Source: an uncultured Gammaproteobacteria bacterium
GTDB taxonomy: Bacteria > Patescibacteriota > Patescibacteriia > UBA1558 > S5-K13
Reading direction: 5' to 3'
DNA length: 48,664 nt
NCBI GenBank assembly: GCA_964639335.1
Contig: CAZXCJ010000002.1
Coordinates: forward strand, 1 to 48,664
In this document: positions 13,026 to 36,725 of the stretch, one piece after another
Position numbering within the stretch: the stretch's first letter is position 1
Layout of the letters: each line of letters starts with the position of its first letter
The notes under the pieces: generated by a model
The model's database searches: none
What the model saw: the letters and a program-made list of their open reading frames with translations, nothing else
What the model was told of the DNA's origin: nothing
Program-made: the position numbers and the translations under genes

Positions 13026-13128
13026 ACCCCGTTAGATAAGATAAACAATTGATACAAAATTAAATTAATGAGATTTATTATGAAAATTTATATAAGGAAA
13101 TTTAAAAAAATAATTTATCTAACGGGGT
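13026..13128. mobile_element. 103-bp MITE-like element with 14-bp perfect terminal inverted repeats ACCCCGTTAGATAA
   Basis: Arms lie at 13026-13039 and 13115-13128. The interior shares the 17-mer atacaaaattaaattaa with the element at 30159-30259. The right arm contains the ligA GTG start. Confidence 0.65.
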
Positions 13129-15115
13129 GAATAAAAAAGATACAAAATTAAGAATAGAAAAATTAAAAAAAGAAATAGAACATCATCGTTATCTTTATCA
13201 TGTTTTAGATCAACAGGAAATAAGCGACCCAGCCCTAGATTCTTTAAAAAAAGAATTAGCAGATTTAGAGCAGAAATTTCCAGATTTACAAACAATAGAT
13301 TCGCCAACTTTAAGAGTTAGCGGCCAGGCATTGGATAAATTTGAAAAAGTGAAGCACAAATTTTTAGTTTTATCTTTGCAGGATGTTTTTTCTGTTGAAG
13401 AATTAAAAGATTGGCAGGAAAGAAATGAAAAAATAGCTTCAGGAAATTATGATTATTTCTGCGAATTAAAATTAGACGGATTAACTATTGTTTTAAATTA
13501 TGAAAAAGGTATTTTAAAAACAGCGGCCACCAGAGGAGATGGAAAAATTGGAGAAGAAGTGACTAGCAATATCAGAACTATAGAAAGCATCCCATTGAAA
13601 TTAAGGCATCATAAATATCAAATTCCGGATTTTTTAAGCATCAGGGGTGAGGTTTTATTAACAAAAAAATATTTTAATAAGGTAAATAAGCAGAGAATAA
13701 AAGAGGGGCTGGAGCCCTTTGCTAATCCGCGTAATATTGCAGCTGGCAGTATTAGGCAATTAAACCCTCGTATTACTGCCCAAAGAGAATTAATATATTT
13801 TGCTTATGACATTAAAGAAGATATAGGGCAAAAGACCCATGAAGAAGTACATGAAATTTTAAAAGATTTTGGCTTTAAAATTAATCCGCATAATGAGTAT
13901 TGTCCGCATATCGGAGCAGCAGCTGTTTATTTACAAAAATGGGAAAAGAAAAGAAAAAATTTGGATTATTTAACAGATGGAGCAGTAATAGTAGTGAATG
14001 ATATTGGATTAGAAAAAAAATTGGGCAATATCGGCAAATCAGAAAGATGGATGATTGCTTATAAATTCCCGCCGGAGCAAGTCACTTCGCGAGTTAAAGA
14101 TATTATTGTTCAGGTTGGCCGAACCGGGGCCTTAACGCCAGTAGCAATTTTAGAGCCCCACAAATTAGCTGGCAGTTTGGTTTCCCGGGCTACTTTGCAT
14201 AATTTTGATGAAATAGCCAGATTAGATGTCAAAATAGGAGATACAGTAATTATTCAAAAAGCCGGAGATATTATTCCAGAAGTCGTTAAAGTTTTAAAAC
14301 GGCTGAGAACTGGCCAGGAAAAAAGAGTTTCTATTCCACAAAAATGTCCAGTTTGTAATTATCCTATTACCAAAAAAGAAGGAGAGGTTAATTATTATTG
14401 TTCTAATAAAAATTGTTATGCCATTCAAAAGCAGAATATAATTCATTTTGTTTCTAAGCGAGCTTTCAATATTGAGGGCCTTGGGAAGAAAATAGTTGAA
14501 CAATTAATGGAGGCCAATTTAATAGAGGACGCGGCTGATATATTTAAATTAAAAGAAGGCGATCTTTTGCCCTTGGAAAGATTTGCCAATAAATCAGCTG
14601 AAAATTTAATACTAGCCATAGAGCAGAGTAAAAAAATAGATTTAGATAGATTTATATATGCTTTAGGAATTCGGCACGTAGGAGATGAAACTAGTATTAT
14701 TTTGGCCCGTAGATTTGGCTCTTTAGAAAGGCTGACAAAGGCTCGAGCAGAAGATTTTGAGGATATTCATGATATAGGTTCTAAGGTAGCTCAAAGTTTA
14801 GAAGATTTTTTTCATAAAAATAAAAATATAAAATTAGTTCAAGAACTGTTAGATTTAGGAGTTCAACCCGGTAAATTAAAAATTAAAAGCCAAAAATTGA
14901 AAGACAAAATTTTCGTTTTAACAGGCAGTCTAGAAAATTTGACTCGTGAGCAGGCCAAAAATATTATTAGAGAATTAGGCGGCAAAGTTTCTTCTTCGGT
15001 CAGCAAAAGAGTTGATTATTTATTATTAGGAAGTGAGCCGGGTTCTAAATATGAGCAGGCCCAAAAATTAAATGTGCAGATGATTTCTGAGCAAGATTTT
15101 AAAAAAATGATTTAA
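13127..15115 (+). CDS. ligA: NAD-dependent DNA ligase
   Basis: 662 aa with the CELKLDG adenylation motif, an OB fold, a Cys4 zinc finger (CPVC...CSNKNC), HhH repeats and a C-terminal BRCT. GTG start. Confidence 0.95.
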
Positions 15116-15146
15116 AGAAGATTGGTTTTTATGCTAAAGTTAAAAT

Positions 15147-15449
15147 ATGTTAAAAAAAGATTTATCTTCCGTATCCTTGATGAAGGAAGAAGACATTCAA
15201 AAATTAGCTAAATTATCGCGGATTGAATTAAAATCCAAGGACATTAAAGAATTCAGTAAACAATTGAGCAGTATTTTAGATTATGTTAATAAAATCCAAA
15301 ATTATAAATTTTCCGCAATTAAATCAAACGAAAACCAAAAGATCCCAGATTTAAGAAAAGATGAAATTAAAAAATTTGACGGACAGGGAATTATTAAACA
15401 ATTTAGCGAGCAAGAAAGAAAATTATTAAGAGTTAAAAAGATACTGTAG
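15147..15449 (+). CDS. gatC: Asp/Glu-tRNA amidotransferase subunit C
   Basis: 100 aa; the pattern DIQKLAKLSRIELKSKDIKEFSKQLSSILDYVNKI and its position upstream of gatA. Confidence 0.85.
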   Translation: MLKKDLSSVSLMKEEDIQKLAKLSRIELKSKDIKEFSKQLSSILDYVNKIQNYKFSAIKSNENQKIPDLRKDEIKKFDGQGIIKQFSEQERKLLRVKKIL

Positions 15450-15544
15450 GCATTAGGCGATAGTCGTTAGGCAATAGCCCGCCTTAATTTTTATAAAATT
15501 ATGGCGGGTAGGCGCTATTCCTATTGACTATTGACTAATAACTA

Positions 15545-35050: not shown

Positions 35051-35082
35051 ACCCCATTAGATAATTTCATATCTAACGGGGT
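35051..35082 (+). promoter_or_regulatory. Hairpin 28 nt upstream of TR, related to the post-VR hairpin
   Basis: accccattagat / atctaacggggt form an 11/12-bp stem with an 8-nt loop, followed by GTGAAGGGA. The post-VR hairpin is followed by GTGAAGGGG. Confidence 0.65.
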
Positions 35083-35109
35083 GAAGGGATTAAATCAATA
35101 AGTGGCACG

Positions 35110-35227
35110 CGTGGCTTCATCCGTGGCGGCAATTGGAATAATGGTTCGAATGCCGGCCTCTTTGCCCTGAACCTCAACAACGCTCCGTCCAATACGAACA
35201 ACAACATTGGCTTTCGCTGCGTCCGCT
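35110..35227 (+). other. DGR template repeat (TR)
   Basis: Intergenic 118 nt rich in AAY codons. In the VR frame it reads RGFIRGGNWNNGSNAGLFALNLNNAPSNTNNNIGFRCVR. Confidence 0.92.
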
Positions 35228-35426
35228 TCAGTGGTTATTATAATAAACTTGCTAGAATTTCTATTCTTTATGTAGATAGAGAGAGAGCACTATAAACCCC
35301 AGATTTTATTCCTTTTTTCTGTTTTAGAATTGCAGGGGAAAAATATTAAGGCTTTTGGGATTGGCTTGTATTAGTAATTTTTTTGAGTGAAAATTCAGGT
35401 CAATCCGCCGAGTCTTTAAAATTAAA

Positions 35427-36725
35427 ATGAAAACATATAAAAATTTGTTTAGAAGTATTTGTTCTTTTGAAAATTTACACCTTGCTTATTTAAAAGCGCG
35501 AAAATGTAAAAAATATCGGGATTATGTTTTAAAATTCAGCTATAATTTGGAAGAAAATCTGCTAAAATTAAGGGAGGAATTATTGAATCAGACATATTGC
35601 CATGGTTCTTATAGAGAATTCACTGTTTGCGACGCTAAAAAGCGTCATATTAAAGCAGCTCCTTTTAGGGACAGAGTTGTTCACCATGCTTTGTATCATA
35701 TTATTGAACCGATTTTTAACAAAAGTTTTATTTATGATTCTTATGCTTGCCGAGAAAATAAAGGTACTCATCGGGCAATAAAAAGATTGCAGAAATTTTT
35801 GAGAAGAACGAATATTAATAAGTGTATTTATTGCCTGCAAGCTGACATTTCAAAGTATTTTGACAGCATTGACCATCAAATTTTACTATTGTTGATAGAG
35901 AAAAAAATTAAAGACCAAAAAGTTATTTGGTTGATAAAAGAGATTATAAACAGTTGTTGCATCCATAAGATTTATAAGAATTTATTCGACCCTATTAGAG
36001 ATTCTTATTTTTCGAACGGAACGAGAGTCATAAAAAGTCTGAACGAAGTGAAGACCTTTTATGACCGAGTGAGTGAGAAAAGAATGAATACCCCGTCAGC
36101 TTGCTGCGGGGTTAAGGTGCGACCGAATGGGAGCTCCGATCAGAGTCCAGAGCTTGCTCTGGGGTTTGATACCATTCATTCTGAGCGGGGCAAAAGAGAA
36201 AATGAGAGAAAATCTCTAACGGGGTTTGACTTTAGAAAAACAGGGATTCCTATTGGCAATTTAACCAGCCAGCTATTTGCTAATATTTACTTGAATGAAT
36301 TAGACCAGTTTGTAAAACATGAATTAAAAGAGAAGTATTATCTTCGTTATATGGATGATTTTCTTATATTATATCCTTCAAAGCAGAAACTTCATCAGAT
36401 TAAACAAAAAATTGGGATATTTTTACAAGAGAAATTAAATTTAAAATTGCATCCTAAAAAAGTGAATGTATTTCAAGTAAAAAATAATATCTGTTTTCTT
36501 GGTTATCGTCATTTTATAGATTATAGGTTATTGAAAAAAGATACAGTTAAAAGGTTTATAAAAAGGACTAAAATTTATAAAAAGAGATTAAGTACAGGAT
36601 TGATGACTCAAGAAAAATTTAATGATTCTTTGCAATCATGGTTGGCTTACGCTCAATTTGGTAATTCATGGGGTTTGGTTCAAAAATTGTTCCAAATTAT
36701 ACCAATATCCAAAAAAAAAGATTAA
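35427..36725 (+). CDS. DGR-type reverse transcriptase with a large in-frame insert
   Basis: RT motifs are KAAPFRDRVVHHAL, ADISKYFDSIDH, GIPIGNLTSQLFANIYL (the DGR-diagnostic IGxxxSQ), YLRYMDDFLIL and LKLHPKK. Confidence 0.9.
   Translation: MKTYKNLFRSICSFENLHLAYLKARKCKKYRDYVLKFSYNLEENLLKLREELLNQTYCHGSYREFTVCDAKKRHIKAAPFRDRVVHHALYHIIEPIFNKSFIYDSYACRENKGTHRAIKRLQKFLRRTNINKCIYCLQADISKYFDSIDHQILLLLIEKKIKDQKVIWLIKEIINSCCIHKIYKNLFDPIRDSYFSNGTRVIKSLNEVKTFYDRVSEKRMNTPSACCGVKVRPNGSSDQSPELALGFDTIHSERGKRENERKSLTGFDFRKTGIPIGNLTSQLFANIYLNELDQFVKHELKEKYYLRYMDDFLILYPSKQKLHQIKQKIGIFLQEKLNLKLHPKKVNVFQVKNNICFLGYRHFIDYRLLKKDTVKRFIKRTKIYKKRLSTGLMTQEKFNDSLQSWLAYAQFGNSWGLVQKLFQIIPISKKKD

Follow-up and report, generated by a model that had tools for sequence, protein, structure and literature searches.

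Positions 1 to 48,664 of contig CAZXCJ010000002.1 (GenBank assembly GCA_964639335.1), deposited as an uncultured Gammaproteobacteria bacterium and placed by GTDB within the Patescibacteriota, are AT-rich (~25-38% GC) and carry ligA as well as a diversity-generating retroelement (DGR). This whole stretch of 48,664 nucleotides is called the window below. Its genes and the nearest relatives of its LigA assign it to the candidate phyla radiation/Patescibacteria. The DGR is canonical: it has a target gene, a variable repeat (VR), the accessory gene avd, a template repeat (TR) and a gene for a reverse transcriptase (RT) (Table 1), and the 14 mismatches between VR and TR all lie at TR adenines. Small inverted repeats with the end sequence ACCCCGTTAGA are found at the beginning of ligA and at several places in the DGR. 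An earlier note, made from the letters of the window alone, described them as a family of elements that might be a miniature inverted-repeat transposable element (MITE) acting as a portable 5' end, or else a recognition site tied to the DGR. Comparison with related genomes indicates that the repeats are very probably a non-autonomous, foldback-type, MITE-like mobile family.

Table 1. Repeats and parts of the DGR (positions in the window unless a contig is named; a raised dot marks a point of insertion)
Feature	Position	Strand	Remarks
Copy 1, at the ligA start codon	13026-13128	.	103 bp; perfect 14-bp arms ACCCCGTTAGATAA / TTATCTAACGGGGT
GA duplicated by copy 1	13024-13025 and 13129-13130		original ATG 13022-13024; regenerated GTG 13127-13129
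Copy 2, after codon 2 of the DGR target gene	30159-30259	.	101 bp; perfect 13-bp arms
VR	33733-33850	+	118 nt, 88% identical to TR
Short hairpin copy after VR	33853-33895	.	43 bp; ACCCCGTGAGATAG arms; at the TGA·A stop of the DGR target gene
avd	34682-35029
Short hairpin copy between avd and TR	35051-35082	.	32 bp; arms ACCCCATTAGATAA / TTATCTAACGGGGT; 27 nt before TR
TR	35110-35227	+
RT gene	35427-36725
Element in the RT gene	35989-36225	+	in frame; arms ACCCTATTAGA (35989-35999) and TCTAACGGGGT (36215-36225)
Nested insertion in the RT element	36009-36179	+	171 bp, 57 codons, in frame; GC-rich, several small hairpins
Copy at glyS (degenerate)	L144 1745-1842		~8 kb upstream of the window; arms AACCCGTTAGA / TCTAACGGGTT
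Related hairpin family	136-314	.	arms ACCCTGTTAAA / TTTAACAGGGT; nested AACCTGTTAAAT hairpin; ends 10 nt before ATG 325

The two full copies reported in the earlier note, at ligA and at the DGR target gene, were found again with the same coordinates and perfect arms, and its short copies, little more than arms, lie where it had put them, after VR and before TR. The interior 17-mer shared by the full copies, ATACAAAATTAAATTAA, occurs only twice in the 48.6-kb window, once inside each of them, and is not a common AT-rich word. The end sequence ACCCCGTTAGA, an 11-mer, occurs exactly seven times, counting either strand, and 22 times at up to two mismatches, whereas 100 shuffled sequences averaged 7.0 such matches and never exceeded 13. 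These matches pair convergently, as ACCCCGTTAGA…TCTAACGGGGT, and every copy in the window folds into a hairpin (z-scores of -2.4 to -7.0). The hairpins are not generic terminators, as their stems are not followed by a run of T and the copies are bounded by duplications. Rfam at gathering thresholds found only tRNA and tmRNA in the whole window and no family for the element, and at E-values up to 5 it gave, on 29900-36400, only chance matches of the miRNA and snoRNA type. The statement that four of five copies lie within the DGR locus is correct for the window, but further copies lie outside the locus (the one at glyS and a related pair at 136-314).

How the element came to lie at ligA can be seen from a sister species (orthologous loci L122 and L132), in which LigA shares 85% identity with that of the window and RT shares 73% (BLASTP; 87% when aligned columns are counted). 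Its ligA site is empty, reading TTTAAATGAACAAACAA with an ordinary ATG (L122), where the window has ATTATGA[element]GAATAAAAAA. The earlier note had proposed a comparison with just such a locus, and the empty site sets the boundary at ATGA·A and reveals a duplication of GA. The old ATG survives in the window and now opens only ATG AAC CCC GTT AGA TAA. The first possible start of the LigA open reading frame (ORF), and the one chosen by the gene caller, is the GTG straddling the end of the right arm, in agreement with the note's placement of the start. This GTG is there because the element landed on the original ATGA·AT: the terminal GT of the element and the duplicated GA rebuild a start codon, which continues as GTG AAT AAA… in the original frame. 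In a third relative, L125 (LigA 88% identical), a decayed copy occupies the same position and is followed by a new AGGATGAAT. This new stretch, CTAATAGGATGAAT at L125 8040-8056, has a Shine-Dalgarno-like AGGA and an ATG and looks like compensatory repair of damage; the gene caller instead extended LigA into the element, to 678 aa.

Beyond the window, the pattern ACCCCGTTAGA-N60-90-TCTAACGGGGT was sought in one genome per GTDB species and was found at no fewer than 119 loci, as against ~1 expected by chance. The statistics given here and below are drawn from the matches listed, 122-125 copies in all (123 non-redundant). Their hosts belong to at least eight phylum-level groups and include many classes of the candidate phyla radiation (CPR)/Patescibacteria, Omnitrophota, Planctomycetota (Pirellulales, Brocadia, Sedimentisphaerales), Desulfobacterota, several 'delta-proteobacterial' orders, Nitrospirota, KSB1, Edwardsbacteria, Stahlbacteria, and two Gammaproteobacteria. 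Among these matches the arms occur almost exclusively as convergent pairs. The consensus of the ends is a terminal inverted repeat of ~14 bp, ACCCCGTTAGA-AAT, and the length of the perfect inverted repeat peaks sharply at 14 bp (55 of the 123 copies). Copies range from 30 to 112 bp, with totals clustering at 96-108 bp; full copies measure ~95-108 bp, and short ones, at 30-45 bp, consist of little beyond the two ends. Most interiors are unrelated to one another, with 80 singletons among 123 and no cluster of more than 13 members; their GC content ranges from 15% to 74% and tracks the surrounding DNA weakly (r = 0.39). A subset of the deltaproteobacterial and CPR elements takes on a Y-shaped fold of ~96 nt from an internal hairpin module, CGGGGCATTAAACCCCG or a variant of it (L016, L026, L042, L092, L054, L086, L113, L121, L041, L048, L069, L109 and L110). 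This points to nested insertion of a second hairpin, itself widespread, or to exchange between phyla. A metagenome scan with the left arm and part of the 17-mer gave only two extra loci, L141 and L143, besides the copy in the sister species, so the subfamily bearing the 17-mer is small. The 103-bp elements at these two loci are 100% and 99% identical to the ligA copy and have different flanks.

The flanks of the listed copies bear a target-site duplication. Of 122 copies, 115 have T at -3, 117 have A at +3, and 84 have the two nucleotides between as a direct repeat (~8 expected; binomial p = 4e-71). The layout of an insertion is T-xy-[ACCCC…GGGGT]-xy-A; the positions farther out lean toward R and Y, and the wider site preference is roughly R-T-N-N-A-Y. 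The duplicated dinucleotides are TT/AA (43 copies), GA/TC (18), TG/CA (15) and AG/CT (3), while the self-complementary AT, TA, CG and GC together appear once (TA), despite the abundance of TATA and TTAA in intergenic DNA. Such avoidance might call to mind a serine recombinase, but that idea was set aside, since the probable excision footprint described below keeps both copies of GA and an enzyme of this kind would restore one. Sites with a single NN and no element are found at ligA, at gatA and after VR, and the presence of the element differs at four sites when the window is compared with same-species contigs and with the sister species.

These differences bear on whether the repeats move at all. 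One might imagine a fixed regulatory hairpin, REP-like or serving as an mRNA stabiliser or terminator. The ends are indeed identical across phyla, the position at gene boundaries is recurrent, the folds are strong, and a compensatory change keeps the stem of the glyS copy paired (see below). A fixed hairpin would not be expected, however, to show presence and absence with duplicated flanks at four sites, nor 99-100% identical copies at unrelated loci, and the missing T-run and the lack of an Rfam match count against it as well. An invertible segment would be a further non-mobile possibility; the interiors of copies 1 and 2 appear in a single orientation in the 3-5 contigs available for each (contig data only), and no inverted-interior allele was seen among these few contigs. 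A non-mobile origin, of either sort, is highly unlikely.

The geometry observed at ligA recurs elsewhere. In the sister species, gatA has an 85-bp copy with ATCCCG…CGGGAT arms at ATGA·AAGAG, a site that is empty in the window, and there the arm ending in ..GGGAT regenerates ATG. A sigma-70-family gene at L141 has a GTG regenerated in the same way. In the arms of the degenerate copy at glyS, a compensatory change from C:G to A:T keeps the stem and makes the regenerated start TTG, and excision in silico restores MNKIISLAKRRGF…. In general, ..GGGGT, ..GGGAT or ..GGGTT followed by a duplicated GA gives GTG, ATG or TTG in the original frame; likewise, a stop codon is kept after insertion at TGA·A, TAA·A or TAG·A. 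When the 123 listed copies are excised in silico, an ORF of 100 codons or more regains its ATG or GTG start in ~14 of them, and in 15 the excision touches a stop codon, whereas matched T-NN-A sites, used as controls, give 0.9% and 2.7%, respectively. The window itself offers 89 fully intergenic TGAA/TTCA sites, 10 NTGAA gene starts and three TGA-A stops.

Copies may also persist within ORFs, because only one frame of each arm has a stop codon and the other two are open (PVR...SNGV or TPL...LTG). Genes for Exo III, ABC-F, Memo and an IorA-like enzyme in other phyla contain in-frame copies, which add NPVR…SNGV or TPL…LTGF peptides, and the Pfam domains there extend across the inserts. The listed copies show an excess of frame-preserving lengths, those in which length + 2 is divisible by 3 (57 of 123, p = 0.005).

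At the DGR target gene the outcome was different from that at ligA. Because the insertion amounts to 101 + 2 bp, copy 2 is out of frame, and the old ATG (30153-30155) now reads ATG TTC ACC CCG TTA GAA ATT TAG. The ORF opens at ATG 30214 inside the copy, with the right arm translated as FLTGF, just as the earlier note had it. This start adds MDKKNNTINKGFLTG ahead of the old signal anchor, FKNKKLIVFLAV…; with copy 2 excised in silico, the protein begins MFKNKKLIVFLAV..., a signal-anchor N-terminus. The sister species shares the insertion, with a perfect TTTA flank (ATGTTT·ACCCC...GGGGT·TTAAAAAT), and the copy is 98/101 identical between the two species, a level above that of its flanks.

A rival view is that selection retains the element, or at least the subfamily to which copies 1 and 2 belong, as the carrier of a translation-initiation module for the downstream gene, with a leader, an internal ATG in fixed frame, and coupling of stop to start. 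In both full copies of the window, an ATG in the LTG frame precedes the right arm by 36-39 nt. The mini-ORF of copy 1 stops at a TGA that shares bases with the ligA GTG (GTGA), and the identical copy at L141 abuts the GTG of the sigma-factor gene in the same manner; in copy 2, the internal ATG is the sole usable start of the target gene, within an element better conserved than its surroundings; and insertions of the GA type are over-represented at start codons. Nonetheless, the interiors are unrelated in most of the family, and 73 of the 125 listed copies are plainly intergenic. The ligA and gatA orthologues with empty sites have ordinary ATG starts, so these genes do not need the element, and the fresh Shine-Dalgarno sequence and ATG at L125 look like repair of damage and not use of the element. 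Nor is a promoter evident: scanned for promoters, copies 1 and 2 did not score above shuffled sequences, and the one good promoter-like site that the target gene has, TTGATA-17-TATTAT at 30098-30126, precedes the element. On balance, an adaptive portable 5' end is rather improbable. What holds of that proposal is the supply of start codons, which in copies 1 and 2 comes without a promoter signal above background and which at ligA is a side effect of the landing site.

As for the proposal linking the element to the DGR, the copy after VR begins 3 nt past the last base shared by VR and TR, right after VR and the stop codon. The DGR of phage BPP-1 has a GC-rich hairpin directly 3' of VR, and a hairpin/cruciform at that place is needed for efficient homing (PMC3240598). 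By analogy, the post-VR copy could be a recognition cruciform, matched by the structure before TR and spreading with the DGR, and the clustering of four copies in the DGR locus would be in keeping with this. Also, related DGRs have other, unrelated palindromes at the post-VR position, TAAATTGTTGACCCCTCGGGTCAACAATTTA (L135 20-80) and TTTGTTGACCCAAAGGGTCAACAAA (L138 4770-4800), from which it appears that a hairpin has been gained there repeatedly, out of different repeat families.

The hairpin of the window is, however, not a constant feature. The sister species and a further related DGR have an empty site at this position (CGCTGAAGGGG), and the sister DGR, which is active and has no post-VR hairpin, shows differences between VR and TR at A only. 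Where the window reads CGCTGA[43 bp]GAAGGGG, two contigs of the same species, L128 and L129, encoding an RT identical to that of the window, read CGCTGA-GA-AGGGG, without the element and with both copies of GA. The hairpin-less VR differs from the VR of the window at 20 positions, all of them TR adenines. Since the hairpin is missing from the sister and from same-species alleles that diversify, it is not a defining part of this DGR; unlike its counterpart in BPP-1, it is a polymorphic insertion of a genome-wide repeat. The same element also occurs at ligA, gatA, glyS and the sigma-factor gene and inside housekeeping ORFs, and a tblastn search with RT, Avd, the C-terminus of the target protein and DUF559 found no DGR RT or Avd within 8 kb of the copies at the 119 other-genome loci listed (there was one match to DUF559). 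A DGR origin of the hairpins is already largely refuted, and an accessory structure of the DGR is a very improbable account of them; the note's suggestion of a DGR-bound recognition site is not supported by these comparisons. The hairpin may still be of secondary benefit to the DGR, to judge by the BPP-1 example and by the unrelated palindromes of related DGRs.

The short copy between avd and TR is present in every same-species contig spanning the site; in the sister species the region upstream is rearranged and offers no clean empty site. The similarity GAAGGGGTTTAA / GAAGGGATTAAA that follows both hairpins belongs to the locus and not to the element, since the sister species has the similarity but not the hairpins. 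Another gene for an Avd-like four-helix bundle (Pfam 23S_rRNA_IVP) is located at 18781-19158, at a distance of 15 kb from the DGR, and has no neighboring RT.

In the two outgroup DGR lineages that keep a TGA stop, GA stands only once (TGAAGGGG), and for this reason the doubled GA of L128 and L129 is read as what an element left behind, a probable excision footprint. Retention of both copies of GA favors flush excision of the cut-and-paste type.

A further copy interrupts the RT gene, in frame, between …YKNL and FDFR…, an insert that is found only in the window and the sister species among 10 aligned RTs. Its left arm, ACCCTATTAGA, reads ACCCCATTAGA in the sister, where the element appears as TTTGA·CCCC...GGGG·TTTGA; the ancestral element was 66 bp flanked by TTG/TTG, making 69 bp or 23 codons. 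The extra T in the flank might be a frame-restoring insertion, which is speculation. In the window, the element has received the nested insertion (Table 1), which is absent from the sister RT element and has a fold z-score of -4.7. The earlier note had paired accccgtcag at 36090 with ctaacggggt at 36216 as a diverged pair bracketing the GC-rich part of the insert. In view of the separate nested insertion this pair was mis-assigned: 36215-36225 pairs with 35989-35999, and accccgtcagc at 36090 pairs locally, inside the nested insertion, with gctgcggggt at 36101-36111. The nested insertions together give RT 80 extra residues between the fingers and palm motifs, which the enzyme probably tolerates, to go by the sequences of the alleles; because VR differs between alleles with the same RT, an RT so enlarged would seem to be still active in the population.

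The case for a MITE-like family draws on the terminal inverted repeats, the duplicated target sites, the empty orthologous sites, the probable footprint, and the near-identical copies at three loci, and on this point the earlier note has been borne out. The element inserts at T-NN-A and duplicates the central NN. It would be moved by an enzyme supplied in trans, and probably by cut-and-paste, a point that rests on the one probable footprint. T-NN-A overlaps TAA-A, TGA-A and TAG-A stops and ATGA-A starts, which would be why many surviving copies lie exactly on gene boundaries. The clustering in the DGR locus would then reflect permissive DNA and not function.

Several observations do not sit easily with this account. 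No autonomous element or transposase was found beside the copies or between distant arms (845 kb of loci), in the window, or in the 10 kb upstream of it. All-against-all clustering of the 2040 ORFs at the loci listed gave no recurring neighbor protein, the largest clusters being housekeeping ones (PilB/GspE-type ATPases at 11 loci, ABC-F, PilC), and no recombinase recurs near the listed copies. Arm pairs 400-4000 bp apart with matching flanks, which would be candidates for autonomous elements, turned out to be only combinations of separate small copies, and the paired-arm pattern has zero matches in the viral contigs of IMG/VR and so no sign of carriage by phage. Direct repeats are absent from 31% of copies; the L141 and L143 copies of the ligA element are flanked by TTC/GAA and TTC/AAA, with no direct repeat, and the RT copy is flanked by 3 bp (TTG) in place of 2. 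The footprint is known from one locus and could instead be a GA slippage allele. It is also unusual for a MITE family to have unrelated interiors of similar length together with ends that are identical across phyla. Finally, neutral insertion followed by loss of disruptive events would be expected to leave ~10-30% of GA-type copies on start codons, but the observed counts are 12 of 18 listed copies across phyla (18-30% expected) and four of six in this lineage (p between 1e-3 and 7e-6). The excess implies that purifying selection alone may not explain the bias and that the target rule is incomplete. An extended target, R-T-G-A-A-Y (a start codon plus an Asn codon), or some property of initiation regions may contribute.

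The repeats may also be a single ancient hairpin family spanning the phyla, with ends selected for recognition by a shared enzyme and for compatibility with coding (regenerated starts, retained stops, two open frames), preferring the starts of housekeeping genes, where the hairpin could in addition gate initiation. An enzyme that is widely shared, whether of the host or rarely linked to the element, would explain the identical 14-bp ends, the unrelated interiors, and the lack of a nearby transposase. As a whole this scheme is unlikely, and a mobile, MITE-like family remains the preferred reading.

The Correia elements of Neisseria (CREE/NEMIS) are the closest known parallel in mechanism. They too are ~100-155 bp long with terminal inverted repeats and a 2-bp duplication, have many copies at gene boundaries, form hairpins in transcripts, can alter the expression of neighbors, and have no known cognate transposase (reviewed in part in PMC10969869). 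They differ in duplicating TA, in their unrelated 26-bp ends, and in their restriction to Neisseria, whereas the present family duplicates non-palindromic NN in T-NN-A, has 14-bp ends, and extends over many phyla with mostly unrelated interiors. Membership in the Correia group was rejected on the basis of the flanks (TT/AA, GA/TC and TG/CA, with TA once) and the different end sequence. In coding behavior, the nearest relatives are the Rickettsia palindromic elements (RPE), small palindromes that persist in frame in genes and add peptide segments (PMC10969869), much like the copies in the DGR RT, Exo III, ABC-F and Memo considered here. RPE, however, are ~150 bp, specific to Rickettsia, and grouped into families by their whole sequence, while the present elements are conserved at the ends only, have clear duplications and empty sites, and are mostly intergenic. 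The family is a member of neither group. What sets it apart is its identical ends across many phyla, the lack of a linked transposase, and the geometry that regenerates start codons.

Other systems are more distant. Repetitive extragenic palindromes (REP/REPIN) and their RAYT enzymes resemble it in that they are intergenic hairpin repeats of similar size whose enzyme is not adjacent to most copies, but a REP arm is an imperfect palindrome with a conserved 5' tetranucleotide GT(A/G)G, is species-specific, and has no target duplication. The arm ACCCCGTTAGA is not self-complementary, its flanks are duplicated, and its ends are common across phyla, so a REP/REPIN assignment was rejected. An integron attC site was rejected as well: the hexamers TCTAAC and GTTAGA stand in reverse order, GTTAGA...TCTAAC (the order in attC is R'' RYYYAAC ... 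R' GTTRRRY, with an integrase or a cassette array close by). So were palindromes derived from IS200/IS605, which have asymmetric ends and go in 3' of a fixed tetra- or pentanucleotide without duplicating it; the present ends are symmetric, they are flanked by a duplicated dinucleotide that differs from site to site, and both copies of it remain in the probable footprint. A 77-bp inverted repeat of Porphyromonas, found in the literature, is unrelated to the element. A literature search with the arm sequence as a string matched only chance primers and oligonucleotides, and no paper connecting MITEs with CPR was found.

The window is rich in other repeats. About 21% of it is intergenic, much of that small repeats, which is unusual for a streamlined genome. 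A hairpin similar to the one at 136-314 lies at 43221-43272. A DUF559/Vsr-like endonuclease ORF (34131-34481) is bracketed by direct repeats of ~150 bp at 33948-34110 and 34480-34642, also seen at 27257-27350, each with inverted ends of its own, CCTCACCCCAAACCCCTCTCC…GGAGAGGGGGTTGGGGGTGAGG. The sister species has a DUF559 gene located between avd and TR instead of before avd and flanked by other GC-rich palindromes, and owing to this difference in position the cassette looks mobile. A second DUF559 gene of the window is at 41885-42238. A different repeat of 103 bp occurs at 24632-24734 and 39729-39831 (97% identical), preceded by runs of TTAAATGG/TTAAATTG units, arrays of which are also found at 19156-19296, 20042-20216 and 24590-24664. 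Finally, intergenic GC-rich composite palindromic repeats, 94-97% identical, lie at 11078-11232, 27160-27250 and 38080-38143, and at 27065-27131 and 42208-42274.

The family has practical consequences for gene calling in CPR and other streamlined genomes, as its elements shift starts, put extra peptides at the N-terminus of proteins or within them, and give rise to false 'longest ORF' starts such as that of the 678-aa LigA at L125. With the rule that an element ends in ACCCCGTTAGA and duplicates NN in T-NN-A, annotators can recover the original starts. It also follows that a hairpin found after VR may be there as a passenger repeat and is not by itself evidence of a recognition structure in a DGR. 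The RT insert, for its part, would mark a permissive surface loop in DGR reverse transcriptases, given that VR differs between strains with the same RT. Identical ends in at least eight phylum-level groups, with no linked transposase and with a bias toward start codons, make a tractable puzzle, and the mobilizing enzyme, once found, would define a new or unrecognized transposition system. In its start-codon-regenerating geometry, the family illustrates clearly how essential genes can receive a parasitic insertion and not be destroyed by it.

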